Shown here piece after piece: positions 3,738 through 59,046 of a DNA stretch of 64,000 nt. The position numbers and the translations under genes are program-made. The stretch lies in the IMG/VR virus record IMGVR_UViG_3300027708_000021; one strand, written 5' to 3'. Every line of letters starts with the position of its first letter. The first letter of the stretch is position 1. The notes under the pieces were generated by a model. It saw only the letters and a list, made by a program, of their open reading frames with translations, did no database searches and was not told the origin of the DNA. This stretch comes from a virus.

Positions 3738-4796
3738 ATGGCAAAGCCATACGACTTCAGTAAATTCCGTAAGGACATTACAAAATCTATTGACGGAATG
3801 TCAATTGGATTCAACGATCCAACAGATTGGGTTAGTACAGGCAACTTTGCTTTGAACTATCTTATCTCTGGAGATTTTAATAAAGGTATTCCGCTAGGCA
3901 AAGTAACAGTATTTGCTGGCGAATCTGGCGCAGGTAAGTCATACATCTGCTCTGGAAATATTGTTAAGAACGCACAAGACCAGGGTATTTTTGTTGTATT
4001 AATTGATACAGAAAATGCTCTTGATGAATTATGGTTACACAACCTTGGCGTCGACACAAGCGAAAGTAAATTGCTCAAACTCAACATGGCTATGATTGAC
4101 GATGTAGCAAAAACTATTTCAACATTTATGCAGGACTACAAATCACTACCCGACGGTGAGCGTCCAAAAGTATTGTTTGTAGTTGACTCCTTGGGTATGT
4201 TATTAACGCCAACTGATGTCAATCAGTTTGAAGCTGGCGATATGAAAGGTGACATGGGTCGTAAACCTAAGGCACTTACAGCACTAGTTCGAAACTCAGT
4301 AAACTTTTTTGGTAGTTATAATGTTGGCATGGTATGTACTAACCATACCTACGCTAGTCAAGATATGTTTGACCCCGACGATAAAATCTCTGGCGGTCAA
4401 GGTTTTATTTATGCGTCAAGTATTGTTGTTGCTATGAAAAAAATGAAACTCAAAGAAGACGAGGATGGCAACAAGATTAGTGATGTTATGGGTATTCGTG
4501 CTGGTTGTAAAGTTATGAAAACCCGTTATGCTAAACCGTTTGAAGGAATGCAGATTAAGATTCCGTATGAAACAGGTATGAATCCGTATAGTGGTATGGT
4601 AGACTTAGCTGAAAAGCGTGGCTTACTTAAAAAAGAAGGCAACAGTTTGGCATTTGTCAGTAGCGATGGCGAAGTTATCAAACAATTCCGTAAAAAATGG
4701 GAAGCCAATGAAGATGGTTGTCTTGATAAAATTATGCTAGACTTCGGAAAACAGCAAGAAACAGTAAGTACTGATGACACACCAACGGAGGAATAA
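3738..4796 (+). CDS. uvsX: RecA-like recombinase UvsX
   Basis: Walker A GESGAGKS, IDTENALD, VVDSLGML, TNHTY, ISGG motifs. Confidence 0.92.
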   Translation: MAKPYDFSKFRKDITKSIDGMSIGFNDPTDWVSTGNFALNYLISGDFNKGIPLGKVTVFAGESGAGKSYICSGNIVKNAQDQGIFVVLIDTENALDELWLHNLGVDTSESKLLKLNMAMIDDVAKTISTFMQDYKSLPDGERPKVLFVVDSLGMLLTPTDVNQFEAGDMKGDMGRKPKALTALVRNSVNFFGSYNVGMVCTNHTYASQDMFDPDDKISGGQGFIYASSIVVAMKKMKLKEDEDGNKISDVMGIRAGCKVMKTRYAKPFEGMQIKIPYETGMNPYSGMVDLAEKRGLLKKEGNSLAFVSSDGEVIKQFRKKWEANEDGCLDKIMLDFGKQQETVSTDDTPTEE

Positions 4797-19008: not shown

Positions 19009-19084
19009 TCCAACTCCTTAATTTTTTACCAAAAGACTAAATACACGTAGGACCTTTGAGTCCACATATAAAAGGAGAATTAAA

Positions 19085-28886: not shown

Positions 28887-29498
28887 ATGAAAAAAATATT
28901 ATTAGTATTAGTTGGGGTAGTAGTATTGGCGCTAGCAGCATACGCCTTATATACAAAATTTAGTATTTCCGATAAAGCACAATCAAAGTCTACATCTGGA
29001 TTAACAGTATGTGATGGTAAGTATGCCCTATGCGCCGCATCAACTTGTAAGGTTACAGGCAAGATGATTACTGGTAATAATGGCACTCCTTATCCCGAGG
29101 TAGAATGTCGTTGCCCTATTCTCGAAGGTCGTGCTATTGCTGATACCAAAGCTGGTAACATGGCAGGTAGTTGTACGCCAACAGATAGTCAACATGTATG
29201 GAGTTTATTTGCTCCTAAGTTATACTATCCACAGGAAGCTAGTAACTTTAGTAACAAGCCAAAAGACATGAAAGCCACAGTTCAAAAATGTGATGCAAGT
29301 TTGAATCTAGGTGACAAAGCCAGTAACTGTTTCAGTTGGAATTGTAAGATCGGTGCCGATGGTATAGCTATATGTTCATGCCCTACAGGACAAGTGGCCG
29401 CCGCTACTACATTCTTAACCGAAGCTGGGCAAGGTAATCCAGATGCTTGTAGTCAGTACCCTGTAAGTTTACCGATACAAAACCCACCAGGTAATTAA
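28887..29498 (+). CDS. Exported/membrane-anchored Cys-rich protein
   Basis: N-terminal hydrophobic helix; 12 Cys in 203 aa. Confidence 0.75.
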   Translation: MKKILLVLVGVVVLALAAYALYTKFSISDKAQSKSTSGLTVCDGKYALCAASTCKVTGKMITGNNGTPYPEVECRCPILEGRAIADTKAGNMAGSCTPTDSQHVWSLFAPKLYYPQEASNFSNKPKDMKATVQKCDASLNLGDKASNCFSWNCKIGADGIAICSCPTGQVAAATTFLTEAGQGNPDACSQYPVSLPIQNPPGN

Positions 29499-42801: not shown

Positions 42802-42853
42802 TTTCTCCAAATTATATTTGTATATAATGATTTTGTAGTATAATAAATACTAG

Positions 42854-42903
42854 TACGAATGCCGCAGTTTGGGTTCGTATATGTCACTTGCTAAACAAAG
42901 GAG
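42854..42903 (+). promoter_or_regulatory. ROSE-like RNA thermometer leader of hsp20
   Basis: Upstream hairpin TACGAA/TTCGTA; CTTGCT (42887-92) opposite SD AAGGAG (42898-903). Confidence 0.6.
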
Positions 42904-42908
42904 AAAAA

Positions 42909-43355
42909 ATGACAAAAATCACAACCATGGATCTTAATCCATTCTATCGCAATGCTATCGGCATTGATAATCTGTTTAATCGCATTGTTAATCAAATCGA
43001 TCATCATGGCAACGACGCAACACATTACCCGCCCTATAACATCATTAAAACTGGTGAAGAAGCTTTTGAAGTACAGATAGCTATCGCAGGGTTTAATGAA
43101 GGGGAAGTTAATGTTGAAGTTCGCGATAATAATTTAATTGTATCGGGCGAAAAGTTAGACAAAGAATTACCAGACGGTCACGAATATACCCACAAAGGCA
43201 TTAGTGCCCGTAATTTTTTGCGTACTTTTAGTTTAGCCGATTATGTTGAAGTAATTAGTGCTATGTCTAAAAACGGTATTTTAAGTGTTCAACTAGAACG
43301 CAAAGTTCCGGAAACAATGAAGCCAAAGACTATTGCTATTACTTACGAATCGTAA
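42909..43355 (+). CDS. Small heat shock protein Hsp20 (IbpA-like)
   Basis: YPPYNI, AIAGF, HKGISARNF.RTF.LA, NGILSV. Confidence 0.93.
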   Translation: MTKITTMDLNPFYRNAIGIDNLFNRIVNQIDHHGNDATHYPPYNIIKTGEEAFEVQIAIAGFNEGEVNVEVRDNNLIVSGEKLDKELPDGHEYTHKGISARNFLRTFSLADYVEVISAMSKNGILSVQLERKVPETMKPKTIAITYES

Positions 43356-43412: not shown

Positions 43413-43721
43413 ATGTCACAAGCAGATGTAGTATCACAAATACACGTTAATAACGAACTCACAGAGCCACCGATGTTTAAAGTTATCTATCTAAACGATA
43501 ATGGAACTACTATGGAATTTGTTATTGAGACTCTAATGAATTTCTTTGATTACAATACCGATACTGCGGTAAAAATTACACAAGACATCCACGAAGCAGG
43601 ATCAGCAGTGGTAGCAGTATTGCCATATGAGATTGCTGAACAAAAAGGAATCGAAGTCACATTATGTGCCCGTTCAGTGAACATGCCTTTACAAGTTAAA
43701 CTAGAACCCGAGACAGTTTAA
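43413..43721 (+). CDS. clpS: N-degron adaptor ClpS
   Basis: PPMFKVIYLNDNGTTMEFVI...IHEAGSAVV...EIAEQK...PLQVKLE. Confidence 0.9.
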   Translation: MSQADVVSQIHVNNELTEPPMFKVIYLNDNGTTMEFVIETLMNFFDYNTDTAVKITQDIHEAGSAVVAVLPYEIAEQKGIEVTLCARSVNMPLQVKLEPETV

Positions 43722-47653: not shown

Positions 47654-47944
47654 ATGGAATGGATTACAGTAAGTTGGCAATATATTAAATCGGACTGGAA
47701 AAGTAATAAGGTAAGATTTTGTGCCGAAGTATTTGCGTGGGCTTGCTCTGTGATAAGCGCCATTATATTTGCGGCCACGGTACCTGACATTCCAGTAGTG
47801 CCACTCTATAGTATTTTTATTGCCGGGTGTTGTGCCAGTGGGTGGGCTTGTTGGACAAGGCGGAGTTTTGGCCTGATGGCTAACTCCGTGTTCCTAGTCA
47901 CAATTGATAGCATCGGATTAATCCGATACTTTTTACAGCATTAA
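47654..47944 (+). CDS. Small three-TM membrane protein
   Basis: Hydrophobic helices; DSIGLIR C-terminal motif. Confidence 0.7.
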   Translation: MEWITVSWQYIKSDWKSNKVRFCAEVFAWACSVISAIIFAATVPDIPVVPLYSIFIAGCCASGWACWTRRSFGLMANSVFLVTIDSIGLIRYFLQH

Positions 47945-48135
47945 GCCTTAGTAGCTCGTGGTTTACGAGGCGCTTTTGATTTTGCCGTGGTAGTTTTTTT
48001 TGCAGTTGGCTTCCTAGTAGGTTTTGCCGCTGGGAATGGTAAAGCTGGTTCGCCAACTGGAGCTTCTACTTTATAAGGCACTTCCGTTGTTTCTGCTGAC
48101 TTAGAGCCAAGTAATTTTCTGAGTAATGATAACAT
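47941..48135 (-). CDS. Small basic protein with Lys/Ala/Pro-rich tail
   Basis: RBS AAGGAG and TAAATA on the - strand; VPYKVE...AKPTRKPTAKKTTTAKSKAPRK. Confidence 0.65.
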   Translation of the reverse strand: MLSLLRKLLGSKSAETTEVPYKVEAPVGEPALPFPAAKPTRKPTAKKTTTAKSKAPRKPRATKA

Positions 48136-48196
48136 AATAAATCTCCTTGTAAACTATTTAGTTCTGTAACCTATGTAATAAAACTTTAATTTTATA

Positions 48197-48217
48197 TTGT
48201 GCGCCACAACATAAATA
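48197..48217 (+). promoter_or_regulatory. PhaR-like palindromic operator abutting a late promoter
   Basis: TTGTGCGCCACAACA immediately followed by TAAATA. Confidence 0.45.
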
Positions 48218-48264
48218 CTCAGTAGAAACCATGATATGGTTCTATATCTAAAAGGAGTCACAAA

Positions 48265-48405
48265 ATGACAAAATTATTAAAGGAACTTACGCAGTTCTTT
48301 CTAACACAACCGAATGCTTTGGAACAGTTTATTAATTCTAAAGAACCAAAGTCCCACGCCGAAGTTGAGTATTGGACAAAGTATTTTGAATTAAGAGGAT
48401 TTTAA
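48265..48405 (+). CDS. Small protein (46 aa), DUF3563-like
   Basis: RBS AAGGAG; LEQFINSKEPKSHAEVEYWTKYFE. Confidence 0.55.
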   Translation: MTKLLKELTQFFLTQPNALEQFINSKEPKSHAEVEYWTKYFELRGF

Positions 48406-48406
48406 T

Positions 48407-48523
48407 ATGAAAAAGATTATTAACTCAATTTATGATTTTTTATGTGATTGCGGCAAAGCCAAGTATGCGGCTAATTTAGCCCGTAACGGCAAAATTAAAG
48501 AAGCACAGGCCTGCTACAAATAA
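48407..48523 (+). CDS. Small protein (38 aa)
   Basis: RBS GAGGA; MKKIINSIYDFLCDCGKAKYAANLARNG. Confidence 0.55.
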   Translation: MKKIINSIYDFLCDCGKAKYAANLARNGKIKEAQACYK

Positions 48524-48524
48524 G

Positions 48525-49079
48525 ATGTTAGCTACCCGTTTTCTCCCTATGCAGGATTTCCATTTATATGGAGACTGGCTACGGGAGAAATCTCCAGAAA
48601 CTTTAGCTACCTATTTTGGTATCGCTACAAGCTCTACATTTATTAATAGTTTAATAGATGGTATTTTAAGCAATCCAGAAGAACATTATTTTTTAATAGC
48701 TACCAAAGGCAACAAATGGGTAGGAGTTATCCATATGGCTCGTATATCCGAAAAGGATATGGAGTTTGGTATTATGGTAGCAGAAGACGAACGCAATCAA
48801 GGTATTGCCGACCAGCTTATAGAAGAAGCTATCACTTGGATTCGCAATCGCGGATTTAATACACTATATCTACATTGTTTGAACCGTAATGCGGTTATGA
48901 AACATTTAGCCAATAAGCATGGGTTAATAGTACACGAAGATCACGGCGATGCTGAAGTAGTAACTCATATACCGCCGCCAAGTATGCTTACATACGCCCA
49001 AGAAGCTGTCACAGCTAATAAGAACATATTCTTTTTAAATTTACAGAATCTTTGGGCACCTTATGCTGATTTGGGCTAA
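48525..49079 (+). CDS. GNAT acetyltransferase
   Basis: MEFGIMVAEDERNQGIADQL; N..MKHLA.KHG. Confidence 0.85.
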   Translation: MLATRFLPMQDFHLYGDWLREKSPETLATYFGIATSSTFINSLIDGILSNPEEHYFLIATKGNKWVGVIHMARISEKDMEFGIMVAEDERNQGIADQLIEEAITWIRNRGFNTLYLHCLNRNAVMKHLANKHGLIVHEDHGDAEVVTHIPPPSMLTYAQEAVTANKNIFFLNLQNLWAPYADLG

Positions 49080-49083
49080 GTAA

Positions 49084-49791
49084 ATGATGTATATTATCTT
49101 ATCAACCCTGGTGATGGTTCAACTCACTATAGCTTGTGTTACCCTTTATCTACATCGCAGTCAAGCCCACAGAGGAGTTACATTTCATCCTGTGTTAGCA
49201 CACTTTATGCGTTTTTGGCTTTGGCTAACAACTGGCATGATTACCGAAGAATGGGTAGCAGTCCATCGTAAGCATCATCAAAAGTCGGATCAACCTGGCG
49301 ACCCACATAGCCCCCAGATCTATGGTATATGGCGTGTGTTGTTTGGTGGTGCGTTACTTTATAAACAAGCCGCTAAGGATCGCATAATGATCGCACAGTT
49401 GAGCACTGGCACACCAGAAGATTGGATTGAACGCCACTTGTACAAAAAGTATAATACACTAGGTATCATGCTCATGCTGATCATTGATCTATGCCTATTT
49501 GGCCTATGGGGCTGGATAGTTTGGGGTGTACAGATGCTTTGGATACCATTTTGGGCGGCCGGAGTTATCAATGGGTTATCGCATTGGTGGGGTTATCGTA
49601 ATGTCGATACCAAGGACACCAGTCGCAACCTATGGCCCGTAGCCATATGGATCGGCGGCGAAGAGTTACACAACGGACATCATGCAGATGGTGCCAATCC
49701 TAAATTTAGCCAACGGTGGTGGGAATTTGATATTGGATGGTTCTATATAACTATTTTAAAATCTCTGGGTCTGGCAAAGTTGCGTCAATAA
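49084..49791 (+). CDS. Delta-9-type fatty acid desaturase (DesA-like)
   Basis: His boxes HRSQAH, HRKHH, HNGHH; DPHSP; EFDIGW. Confidence 0.93.
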   Translation: MMYIILSTLVMVQLTIACVTLYLHRSQAHRGVTFHPVLAHFMRFWLWLTTGMITEEWVAVHRKHHQKSDQPGDPHSPQIYGIWRVLFGGALLYKQAAKDRIMIAQLSTGTPEDWIERHLYKKYNTLGIMLMLIIDLCLFGLWGWIVWGVQMLWIPFWAAGVINGLSHWWGYRNVDTKDTSRNLWPVAIWIGGEELHNGHHADGANPKFSQRWWEFDIGWFYITILKSLGLAKLRQ

Positions 49792-49814
49792 AATCTGCCA
49801 AAAAGGTTGTAAAA

Positions 49815-49908
49815 AATGTGCGGTCGCAATATAATTATATAAATACAGTAGAGAACAGTTAGTGCCGAATTGGTCGGGCTAGCGATGTAACTCGCTTAAT
49901 TATAGGAG
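49815..49908 (+). promoter_or_regulatory. PhaR-like operator, late promoter and ROSE-like leader of the phasin-like gene
   Basis: TGTGCGGTCGCAATAT; TAAATA 49840; CTCGCT (49891-96) opposite AGGAG (49904-08). Confidence 0.5.
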
Positions 49909-49915
49909 ATTTACC

Positions 49916-50179
49916 ATGAAACAATTCGATTTTGAAACAATCAAAGAAGCATTAAACCCAGTCAAATTTATTGATCAAGCTGAAAAAAATACACAGGCTA
50001 TTTTGTGCTATGTAGAACCAAAAGAACTCAGCAAGACTTTGGTTGCTTTTACAAGTGACGTTAGTGATTTTGCCCGTGCTCAAATGGCAACATTTCAATC
50101 TATCGTTGAGATTGCTAAAACACAAACTGAAGAATTTACAAAGAGTTTCGAAAAAGTAACTTCAAAAACTAGTAAGTAA
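49916..50179 (+). CDS. Phasin-like (PhaP-like) small helical protein
   Basis: 87 aa amphipathic helix (ELSKTLVAF...DFARAQ...) with phasin-like size and composition; context. Confidence 0.5.
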   Translation: MKQFDFETIKEALNPVKFIDQAEKNTQAILCYVEPKELSKTLVAFTSDVSDFARAQMATFQSIVEIAKTQTEEFTKSFEKVTSKTSK

Positions 50180-50231
50180 TTACTAACATATCCTATCCGC
50201 CTTCATAGAAGCGCACCGCATAGGATCTTCG

Positions 50232-50257
50232 GCCCCTAGTAATAGGGGCTTTCTTTT
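50232..50257 (+). terminator. Intrinsic terminator
   Basis: GCCCCTA-GTAA-TAGGGGC-TTTCTTTT. Confidence 0.8.
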
Positions 50258-50343
50258 GGCTAAATTTTGGCTATAATATGATTGACTTTAATTCCCAGAT
50301 CAGTTATACTGTTTTATAGTACAACACAACTAAGAGGTTAATT

Positions 50344-51060
50344 ATGAAACAACGCATTTTAGTCTTAGCAATGAGCGGTATCCTAGTGAGTTTGGTAGGT
50401 TGTAGTTCGGCTCCGTCCAAATTAAGCAGCGGGGCAGGTATTGAACCTAGCTCTACTGCAACTACTCCCATAGCAGATCAACGCCTAGCAGTAAATGATT
50501 ATAAGAAACAAGGAGTTAAAATTATTTACAGTCTAAGTGGACAGATGGAAGCTATCGAAGTTACTGGGTATGCGCCAACATGGGGCGGTTCACACAATTC
50601 AGCCCGCGAAGCATTCCGTGTAGCTGAATTAGAAGCCAAAAAATCGCTCAACGATTTCATCAATAAAGAAACTATTGCTAGTAAAGTATCTGTTGTTATG
50701 ATTTCAGAAAACTTGGAACACGCACAGGATAATAACAACAATAATTTTTCTTCCAATAAATCTAGCAAGACCGGAAATACAGGCACAGCAGATGACTTGG
50801 TAGCTGCAGATGACGACCCTAGTGTTAAAGCAGCTGCATCTGGCAATACCGAAGAAAACACAGCGACGCGAAATGCCGCTATGAAGATTGCTAGCAAAAT
50901 GAAGACTACTATTATTAATACTAACCAGGGTATCTTATCTGGATTGTACATGAAAGAAGGAACAGTAATCGATGAAGGCAAGGCTGTAAAGGTTGTTATG
51001 CGCTGGGATACAAAACATAATGATATCCGCCTACAAATCGGCCGTATGATGGCAATGTAA
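50344..51060 (+). CDS. Lipoprotein (LPP20-like)
   Basis: Lipobox LVGC; A.R.AEL.AK..L; promoter 50282-50310. Confidence 0.7.
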   Translation: MKQRILVLAMSGILVSLVGCSSAPSKLSSGAGIEPSSTATTPIADQRLAVNDYKKQGVKIIYSLSGQMEAIEVTGYAPTWGGSHNSAREAFRVAELEAKKSLNDFINKETIASKVSVVMISENLEHAQDNNNNNFSSNKSSKTGNTGTADDLVAADDDPSVKAAASGNTEENTATRNAAMKIASKMKTTIINTNQGILSGLYMKEGTVIDEGKAVKVVMRWDTKHNDIRLQIGRMMAM

Positions 51061-52224: not shown

Positions 52225-52803
52225 ATGCCCTTAGCCCCTACCTCAGAAATCGATCAACGCGACACTTCGCAGATATTGCAAGACTCGGGTATCTTTGTAT
52301 TGATGAGCGATGTTTCAGATGAAAGCATTAAACCAATAGTTGAGTGGATACTACTAGAAAACCATGTAACCCAGAAGAAGAAAAAGGAACTGTTATTAAT
52401 AGTATGTTCCGAAGGTGGTTCTGTAGAAGATGCGTTTGCTCTTATAGATATAATAGCGGCTAGCAGTATCCCAGTTAAAACAGTGGGACTAGGTGTTATC
52501 GCCTCTGCAGGCTTGATGATATTCTTAGCAGGGCACAAAGGTCGCAGAATGTTAACACCTAATACTAGTATAATGAGTCATCAGTACTCAGGTAGTTCAG
52601 ACGGCAAGCATCATGAACTGATTAGTATAGCCAAAGAATTTACACTGATCCAACAGCGTATGTTGAATCATTATATCAAGACCACTGGCATGACCAGAGC
52701 CACTGTAATGAAAAAGTTATTACCAACTTCTGATGTTTATCTATCTGCTGAAGAAGCTCTTAAACTGGGTATCTGCGACATTGTATCCGACTTCAAAAAA
52801 TAA
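52225..52803 (+). CDS. Divergent ClpP-like serine protease
   Basis: SEGGSV, IASAG (Ser), MSHQ (His), SDVYLSAEEA (Asp). Confidence 0.85.
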   Translation: MPLAPTSEIDQRDTSQILQDSGIFVLMSDVSDESIKPIVEWILLENHVTQKKKKELLLIVCSEGGSVEDAFALIDIIAASSIPVKTVGLGVIASAGLMIFLAGHKGRRMLTPNTSIMSHQYSGSSDGKHHELISIAKEFTLIQQRMLNHYIKTTGMTRATVMKKLLPTSDVYLSAEEALKLGICDIVSDFKK

Positions 52804-52866: not shown

Positions 52867-53472
52867 ATGCCAAGTTTAATTCCAATGGTTGTGGAGCAAA
52901 CAGCCAAGGGCGAACGCAGTTACGACATTTATAGTAGACTGTTAAAGGATCGTATTGTCATGTTGGACACAGATGTCAACGAACACTCTTCTAGTTTGGT
53001 AGTAGCCCAGATGCTATTTCTAGAAGCTGAAGATCCAGACACAGATATCCTTTTCTATATTAATAGTCCAGGTGGTGTAGTAACTGCTGGTATGGCTATC
53101 TATGATACTATGAACTTTATCAAGTGTGATGTAAGTACCATCGTCATGGGACAGGCTTGCTCCATGGGTAGTTGTCTAGCACAAGCAGGAGCAGCGGGCA
53201 AGCGATTAATCCTGCCCAATGCCCGTCATATGATACATCAACCCTCTGGTGGTGCTCGTGGGCAAGCAACGGATATCCAAATCCAAGCTCAAGAGATATT
53301 AAAGATGAAAAAGTATTTGACTGAAATTTATGTCAAGCACAATACCAGGGGCAAGACCTTTGAAGAGCTGACCAACGACATGGAACGGGATAACTTTATG
53401 AGTGCCCAAGAAGCTGTGGACTATGGGCTAGCGGATCGCATAATCACCAACAGATCAGAAGCCGTTGTATAA
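52867..53472 (+). CDS. clpP: ATP-dependent Clp protease proteolytic subunit ClpP
   Basis: IPMVVEQ...[33 protein letters not shown]. Confidence 0.96.
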
Positions 53473-58554: not shown

Positions 58555-59046
58555 CTTATAAGTAGAACCCCTGCAGTGCAAGGTCGGCGCCCTGATATCA
58601 CCGGGCGGAAAGGGTAGTCTAGGGTGGATATACCCAGCTATACAAGGGTATACAAGGGTATACAAGGGTATACGACAGTATATAAGGATACTATATACGG
58701 AAGACGAGACGGTGATACAAGGTGATAACGGGCGATGTATAGTCCATATTTCAACCATCTCACCCCGAGGACTGAAGGTTTTGACACTTTCTTCTCACCG
58801 CACTCCGAACCGAAAAGATTCAATCTTTTCTCTAATAACTAACTCACTATACATATACTTTTCTTTATTATTTCGAATAATATCCAACATTTTCCTACCT
58901 TTTCTTACTTTTCCTTACATATCCGTGATTTAATCGACTTTATTATATCTCCGGGCGAGAATAGTAGACTACCGACCCCAAAATGATTGAATCTTTTTGA
59001 ATAATATGTTATAATAACTAGTACAACTAACTCAAAAGGACTCATC
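58555..59046. other. Candidate replication origin
   Basis: Non-coding; phased repeats, paired palindromes AAAAGATTCAATCTTTT / GATTGAATCTTTT, pyrimidine/AT-rich tract, apparent GC-skew switch. Confidence 0.5.
58629..58740. repeat. 10-bp-period tandem repeats (iteron-like)
   Basis: TATACAAGGG x3 exact (58639-68) plus three degenerate flanking units; GGTGATA-type x3 at 58711-40. Confidence 0.8.

Follow-up and report, generated by a model that had tools for sequence, protein, structure and literature searches.

Does a phage switch on some of its genes according to the carbon reserve of its host? The question is raised by two neighbouring transcription units in a 64,000-nucleotide stretch of virus DNA (IMG/VR virus record IMGVR_UViG_3300027708_000021), the whole of which we call the window and to which positions refer unless a contig is named. 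A preliminary description, made from the letters alone, had seen a GC-rich dyad just upstream of a phage late promoter core at the head of each unit. It had read both dyads as sites for PhaR, the bacterial repressor of phasin genes in polyhydroxyalkanoate (PHA) storage. The letters of both dyads, both cores and the shared text that follows them are all in place. The division into two units was upheld, as was the placing of a dyad directly at a T4-late-type core in both, and conservation of the dyads was checked and found in related contigs. On sequence comparison, both dyads hold up as conserved elements with the look of operators. Among possible binding proteins, PhaR of the host would be the strongest single candidate, a proposal that we hold to be about evenly poised between right and wrong.

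The dyads keep their place at orthologous promoters

With the desaturase gene of the locus as query, we collected 80 related contigs of viral origin, the longest of 344 kb; nine of them share the local order UvdE, small open reading frames (ORFs), GNAT, desaturase, lipoprotein and ClpP. In the window, unit 1 is a packed operon with intergenic gaps of 1–4 nucleotides (nt), comprising a 46-residue ORF, a 38-residue ORF, a GNAT gene and the desaturase gene; unit 2 has one gene only, which encodes an 87-residue protein, p87 (Table 1). The desaturase is followed by p87 in all relatives examined, and homologues recognized by a hidden Markov model of the p87 family lie directly after it in all syntenic relatives. 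The order desaturase, p87, lipoprotein, ClpP is still kept in distant contigs with p87 at 33–42% protein identity.

The promoters of the two units have one dyad (box) each; L082–L084 have two. Box 1 abuts the core ATAAATAC and box 2 lies inside the spacer of a sigma-70-like promoter. Orthologues of box 1 stand upstream of the same operon in five contigs (L001, L002, L003, L006 and L009). The 14-mer of box 2, the sole TGCRNNYGCA of the window, recurs identically at the p87 gene in G001, G004 and G005, and the canonical core TGCRNYGCA occupies the orthologous position in L002, L003, L009, L084, L196 and L197. At every promoter found for a p87 homologue a TGC...GCA dyad abuts the core, with canonical boxes at protein identities down to 33%. 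The micro-ORF operon of the relatives has the same layout of dyad and core, and the text downstream (TAAATAC, then CAGTAGAAACC) is nearly invariant; in the window the shared AGTAGA text reads CAGTAGA at 48220 and 49846. Both box-plus-core layouts recur before orthologous genes though the other intergenic DNA has diverged. For the p87 gene, promoter, box, an ATAA(A/G)TA core, leader and terminator are all kept in seven viral contigs, and the sigma-70-like promoter is conserved in L001 and L082–L087. Between box and core there are from about 9 to 17 nt. Such variable spacing is more in keeping with an operator for an occluding repressor than with a fixed element of the promoter.

The significance of cores and dyads lies in position and conservation and not in frequency: as bare words, neither the dyad words nor ATAAATAC (five seen, six expected) are over-represented in the window. 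An excess of CAGTAGA across the window, mostly in coding sequence, was rejected as a signal, and matches to TGCTCAACAAYATAA in relatives were set aside as coding sequence. Canonical cores also stand at 29031 and 58572 of the window; their flanks are GC-rich or coding, and their number is in line with chance (2 against 3.8 expected). Just after the second of these, a lone canonical TGCAGTGCA with GC-rich flanks, three tandem 10-bp units lie in non-coding DNA (58629–58670); they are probably unrelated to the dyads.

Comparison with bacterial PhaR operators

A bacterial reference set was built independently of the phages, through a search of bacterial genomes for the desaturase. About 59 phasin promoters were examined, 21 from Legionella, 30 from Burkholderiales (loci from genomes other than G603, G429, G250 and G518) and eight others. 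In 21 Legionella species a pair of conserved boxes lies in the spacer between phaR and the phasin gene: the first precedes the −35 element and the second comes just after the −10 element. The two-box layout is also present in Alcaligenaceae, Chromatiales and Piscinibacter, and the 30 additional Burkholderiales promoters carry 51 boxes. Box positions around −35 and −10 in Ralstonia eutropha (PMC12849132) agree with these promoters. In Bradyrhizobium diazoefficiens the PhaR consensus TGCRNYGCA has been footprinted, and polyhydroxybutyrate (PHB) abolished DNA binding in vitro (PMC6201568); in Sinorhizobium meliloti this consensus has been confirmed by electrophoretic mobility shift assay (EMSA) with mutated sites (PMC12542648). 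All consensus sites published from footprints and EMSA have a 3-nt spacer (PMC6201568, PMC12849132, PMC12542648), and the boxes of the reference set agree with the sites given there from footprints, EMSA and in-silico work, flanks included.

A 19-nt weight matrix was derived from 24 bacterial phasin-promoter boxes only; its spacing is fixed, so box 2 cannot be scored with it. The best match in the window is box 1 (48195) with 18.3 bits, the next reaching 8.2 bits; the lowest-scoring training site has 18.5 bits. Over 894 kb of related phage loci, 25 sites reach at least 15 bits (2.8 in shuffled sequence) and 16 reach at least 17 bits (0.9 in shuffles). Downstream of these sites are p87 homologues, the micro-ORF/GNAT operon and, in other lineages, isocitrate lyase. 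The canonical 3-nt-spacer boxes of the relatives reach 20–25 bits, flanks included, level with real bacterial sites; in about 600 kb of bacterial DNA, scores of at least 20 bits are confined to the phaR–phasin region and its immediate surroundings. In core and flanks, the boxes of the phage group match the operator that phasin promoters of Beta- and Gammaproteobacteria carry in two copies, which is the site seen in published PhaR footprints.

The 64-kb window has no isocitrate lyase gene. In related phages such a gene adjoins the desaturase (L197 849–2108; L027 1436; L008, L012, L013, L024, L039, L054, L055 and L069), and in its promoter a TGC-N3-GC(A/C) box directly beside ATAAATAC scores 18.6 bits in L197 (779–797) and 15.4 bits in L027.

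PhaR or another regulator

A number of observations weigh against PhaR. Neither box of the window fits the canonical core TGCRNYGCA. Box 1 has the right 3-nt spacing and an A at an invariant G, so that it reads ACA where every bacterial site examined has GCA; the preliminary description had rightly called this dyad off consensus. It had taken box 2 for the good PhaR match, a claim that found no support: a 4-nt spacer occurs in none of the 30 Burkholderiales, 21 Legionella and eight other phasin promoters, and published sites have 3 nt. Boxes with a 4-nt spacer are common in the phage group, where they replace 3-nt boxes at orthologous positions; their absence from bacterial promoters hints at a binder with other preferences. 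Given the mixed spacings, the binder either tolerates both or is no standard PhaR. With the same matrix and the same 600 kb of bacterial DNA, no PhaR-type box was seen at bacterial DesA desaturase genes. The degenerate published 17-mer, allowed up to three mismatches, was discarded as having no discriminating power (53 matches against 72 expected). Assignment of a host failed, the closest bacterial homologues of the desaturase (57–62% identical) being scattered over Legionellaceae, Alcaligenaceae and others. Of the PhaR-like boxes first described there remain the first rank of box 1 in the matrix search and the canonical TGCRNYGCA of the relatives, and not an exact core in the window itself.

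Much of this would be expected if the dyads were operators of another regulator, from phage or host, with a preference for TGTGC half-sites 3 or 4 nt apart; partial convergence would then account for the resemblance to PhaR sites, and the units would be part of a phage-internal, phage-timed metabolic regulon. The 4-nt spacer prevails among boxes of the micro-ORF operon in many lineages, and among those of p87 in at least six, some of these boxes being perfect 14-bp palindromes; the ACA of box 1 is shared by its L002 orthologue; and an exchange of 3-nt and 4-nt boxes at orthologous positions is unusual for a rigid dimer. We nevertheless consider such a regulator unlikely, as the canonical boxes of the relatives score like bacterial sites with their flanks included, and the genes under control (desaturase, isocitrate lyase and a protein with weak likeness to phasins) suit a theme of stored carbon. 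In addition, no candidate for a phage regulator emerged, and five relatives, among them a complete genome of 344 kb, yielded no PhaR gene (PF07879); any PhaR acting here would thus be that of the host. PhaC was likewise not found in these five relatives, the complete genome included.

It is very improbable, in our view, that the boxes have no present regulatory role and are relics of a captured bacterial phasin promoter or mere structural GC-rich hairpins. A sigma-70-like promoter with a box does recall a phasin promoter, the N-terminus of p87 weakly resembles small phasins, and the arms of the boxes co-vary between lineages as those of a hairpin would. However, the boxes persist at three gene sets despite diverged intergenic DNA and protein (33% identity), and persistence across diverged lineages indicates selection. 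The TGC and GCA letters themselves are retained, not just any pairing sequence, and the box is upstream of the likely transcript start, so that it would be outside the RNA.

The p87 protein

About 590 homologues of p87 were found in metagenomes, all of them small and unannotated; they form 16 clusters at 50% identity, and the family is confined to phage contigs. A pattern scan of one genome per bacterial species revealed no relatives, 204 Legionellales genomes gave noise only, and a second protein search with a wider p87 alignment added no homologues. Sequence searches of Pfam, PHROGs, NCBIfam and PDB gave no match. With a diverse alignment, AlphaFold (AF2) predicts a hairpin of helix, loop and long helix at a predicted local distance difference test score (pLDDT) of 84, the first model having reached 60.

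From its size and helical pattern p87 had been called phasin-like. An hhalign comparison with 17 small Legionella phasins gives a weak match over residues 1–40 (score 23.5, P = 0.001, probability 21%), against a score of 11.3 for the reversed control and, in 40 shuffles of the columns, a mean of 11.3 and a maximum of 17.8. By protein-language-model features the clusters nearest p87 are three PHA families, at low scores (0.82–0.83) that serve as leads only. Membership in Phasin_2 (PF09361) failed, p87 having no match against a gathering score of 24.9 bits. Among 25 members of the p87 family one (P0124) reaches 16.6 bits (E = 0.009) with the Phasin_2 model; the weak matches in P0124 and in one relative contig are in differing registers and were treated as noise. 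Against 14 mixed Phasin_2 domains the p87 profile scores 15.4, the reversed control 15.5. Fold searches (Foldseek against PDB, and a shape search of the ESM Atlas) return generic helical hairpins only.

With the Legionella proteins of about 96 residues that are encoded beside phaR and belong to Phasin_2, p87 has in common its small size, an all-helical structure of helix, loop and long helix, an N-terminus alignable over 38 columns including a Tyr-x-x-Pro-x-Glu turn, and a promoter box of the same kind. It differs in failing the Pfam model, in a C-terminal half that cannot be aligned and in its occurrence, all 16 representative clusters being from phage contigs. A phasin-like p87 is possible on these comparisons. 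With a probability that we put just short of even, p87 is not a granule protein but an abundant temperature-gated helical protein, for instance chaperone-like, nucleoid-associated or virion-associated. This would fit the Phasin_2 and fold results as well as a ROSE-like leader that the p87 gene has in common with the IbpA-like small heat-shock gene of the phage; the N-terminal match, the neighbouring PHA clusters and the promoter boxes of phasin-promoter type speak against it.

The p87 leader resembles ROSE RNA thermometers in that its hairpin comes before a U/C-GCU stretch that pairs with the Shine–Dalgarno site. It scores 24.1 bits (E = 0.17) with ROSE_3 (RF02523), over the full model length and correctly placed on Shine–Dalgarno site and AUG, but below the gathering score of 43 bits, and p87 is not a heat-shock gene. 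In 12 relatives the Shine–Dalgarno site and the stretch facing it are invariant, and hairpin 1 has two compensatory pairs. A second ROSE_3-like leader of the window, also sub-threshold (22.4 bits), full-length and correctly placed, lies at 42853–42914 directly before the IbpA-like gene (42888–43355; 114.5 bits to the IbpA model), which is followed by ClpS (43413–43721).

A proposed link to the PHB store

Gating of the two units by the PHB store through host PhaR is the best explanation that we can offer, and we give it a roughly even prospect. Free host PhaR would occupy the boxes and block the adjacent promoter; PHB granules in the host would draw PhaR off the boxes and release both units. 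The desaturase/GNAT set, p87 and, in relatives, isocitrate lyase would then be made in carbon-rich hosts. Because both boxes of the window are off consensus, control may be weaker or differently tuned here. The proposed link to PHB is coherent; expression may depend on PHA, and granules or membranes may be remodelled, as the preliminary description had suggested. More tentatively, and with some doubt on our side, a widespread freshwater lineage of giant T4-like phages may read the PHB store via host PhaR and switch on a carbon-reserve regulon that comprises a phasin-like coat protein, the operon of DesA desaturase and GNAT, and also isocitrate lyase in relatives; different thresholds would be set by variants of the operator (ACA half-site, 4-nt spacer).

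The locus resembles the PhaR (PhbF/AniA)–phaP circuit of bacteria in having a palindromic TGC...GCA box with AT-rich flanks on or beside the promoter elements of a gene for a small helical protein, and relatives of the phage carry the exact TGCRNYGCA core. Unlike that circuit, it belongs to a giant phage of lytic type, in five relatives of which no phaR was found, and the partner promoter has a T4-late-type core. There is one box per promoter in the window instead of the usual pair flanking −35 and −10, and the ACA half-site and 4-nt spacer are seen in no bacterial site.

Auxiliary genes of cyanophages carry sites for nutrient sensors of the host, namely PhoB pho boxes before pstS and phoA, and NtcA sites. 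There, as proposed here, a host transcription factor site precedes phage metabolic genes and expression tracks host nutrition, but the sensor in the present case would report a stored carbon polymer instead of phosphate or nitrogen, through a repressor titrated by granules. If the proposal is true, a lytic phage would sense stored polymer and not dissolved nutrient, deploying genes for lipid and acetyl-CoA handling only in well-fed cells, and a new input would be added to the known phage metabolic genes under host nutrient sensors. A box beside TAAATAC would then be a simple sequence marker for finding genes of this kind, and could help to trace the hosts of a phage group abundant in fresh water. 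Phage-borne genes for PHA synthesis are known (PMC12013262); our literature search found no report of phage promoters with PhaR sites.

Features of the two units

Table 1. Positions of features in the two units (positions in the window)
Feature	Position	Strand	Remarks
Box 1, PhaR-operator-like dyad	48195–48213	.	5-3-5 dyad 48197–48209, arms 48197–48201 and 48205–48209, core TGCGCCACA
T4-late-type core ATAAATAC of unit 1	48211–48218	+	7/8 match to TATAAATA from 48210, first letter C
Leader of unit 1	48219–48264	+	AGTAGAAACC text folding as 5' hairpin, then Shine–Dalgarno site
46-residue micro-ORF	48265–48405	+	No family; homologues in L009, L034, L043, L052
38-residue Cys-containing micro-ORF	48407–48523	+	No family
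GNAT acetyltransferase	48525–49079	+	PF00583, 3.1e-13, 50.4 bits (cut-off 20.7)
DesA-family membrane fatty-acid desaturase, short form	49084–49791	+	PF00487 (FA_desaturase) 52.8 bits; NF049918 396.7 bits
Sigma-70-like promoter of p87 gene, TTGTAA-17-TATAAT	49807–49835	+	10/12 matches
Box 2, dyad within promoter spacer	49817–49830	.	14-mer, 4-bp arms, 2-nt centre; core TGCGGTCGCA, 4-nt spacer
T4-late-type core TATAAATAC of unit 2	49838–49846	+	Exact TATAAATA at 49838; ATAAATAC at 49839–49846
ROSE-like 5' leader of p87	49856–49921	+	Hairpin, then CUCGCU facing Shine–Dalgarno site
p87, conserved helical-hairpin protein, 87 residues	49916–50179	+	About 590 metagenomic homologues, no Pfam family
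Long hairpin and intrinsic terminator	50190–50260	+	Terminator stem 50231–50250 plus T-run

Two of the gene assignments in the preliminary description, the GNAT and the His-box desaturase, proved correct. For the GNAT no NCBIfam equivalog is passed. The desaturase has the three His boxes HxxxxH, HxxHH and HxxHH and is, by its profile match, probably a member of the DesA family. The match to NF049918 covers profile positions 9–240 of 385, the N-terminal two-thirds, and is just under the cut-off of 400 bits; the phage protein has 235 residues against about 385–395 in bacteria and lacks the C-terminal third. A third assignment, DUF3563 (PF12086) for the 46-residue ORF, was rejected, as no match was obtained at E ≤ 1 for the ORF itself, nor, when five relatives were searched in six frames, at E ≤ 10. 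Homologues of the 38-residue ORF occur at many loci with 41–62% identity, mostly adjoining a GNAT gene.

In Legionella the gene set comprises a DesA homologue, two phaB-like reductases, phaR, a phasin of about 96 residues and a convergent phaC. At L106 3962–8692 and in about 20 other Legionella loci the DesA-family desaturase immediately adjoins the run phaB-phaB-phaR-phasin-phaC. Upstream of the desaturase gene of Legionella impletisoli lies a perfect 7-2-7 palindrome (L106, about 3790–3810), whose type differs from that of the PhaR box.

The unit 1 leader, conserved in text among relatives, folds with −10.2 kcal/mol (z −1.9). In the gap before unit 1 the + strand gave no sigma-70-like promoter. 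On the − strand, divergent from box 1, a 64-residue ORF (47941–48135) encodes a protein with a Pro/Ala/Lys-rich basic tail that has no Pfam family and is 43–57% identical in L001, L003, L006, L009 and L063. It shares the control region of box 1 and could be co-regulated.

The region of hairpin and terminator behind p87 (−25 kcal/mol, z −2.8) is kept in relatives. Its first part, a long imperfect hairpin that follows the p87 stop codon and precedes the terminator (50190–50228), is conserved in L083, L086 and L087.

Late-type promoter cores and neighbouring genes

Nearly all genes of the window are on the + strand, and its G+C content ranges from 35% to 46%. Encoded phage functions include ribonucleotide reductase, DnaB-type and other helicases, DNA ligase, tail-fibre-like and virion proteins, and UvdE. 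The public phage collection contained no phage close to the window at the DNA level.

TAAATAC occurs 14 times on the + strand and five times on the − strand, and nine of the 14 copies sit 27–77 nt before gene starts on the + strand. This strand bias and the position before genes indicate that TAAATAC is a real promoter class of the phage, and its reading as a T4-late-type core is reasonable. Among the genes behind such cores are a tail-fibre-like gene (24521), the IbpA-like small heat-shock gene, ClpS and a ClpP-like gene. A dyad is present at just two of the TAAATAC promoters of the window. Other cores, at 19038, 24492, 42844, 43364, 44912 and 52157, lie 29–68 nt before + strand genes without a dyad, several of them followed by a 5' hairpin.

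Behind the p87 terminator, a sigma-70-like promoter (TTGACT-17-TATACT, 50282–50310) precedes the gene for a 238-residue protein with a lipoprotein-type signal peptide (50344–51060). This gene, together with its successor, is conserved behind p87 in relatives; neither has a known family. Further downstream are two adjoining ClpP-type genes, one divergent (52225–52803, 98 bits) and one canonical (52867–53472, 312 bits).

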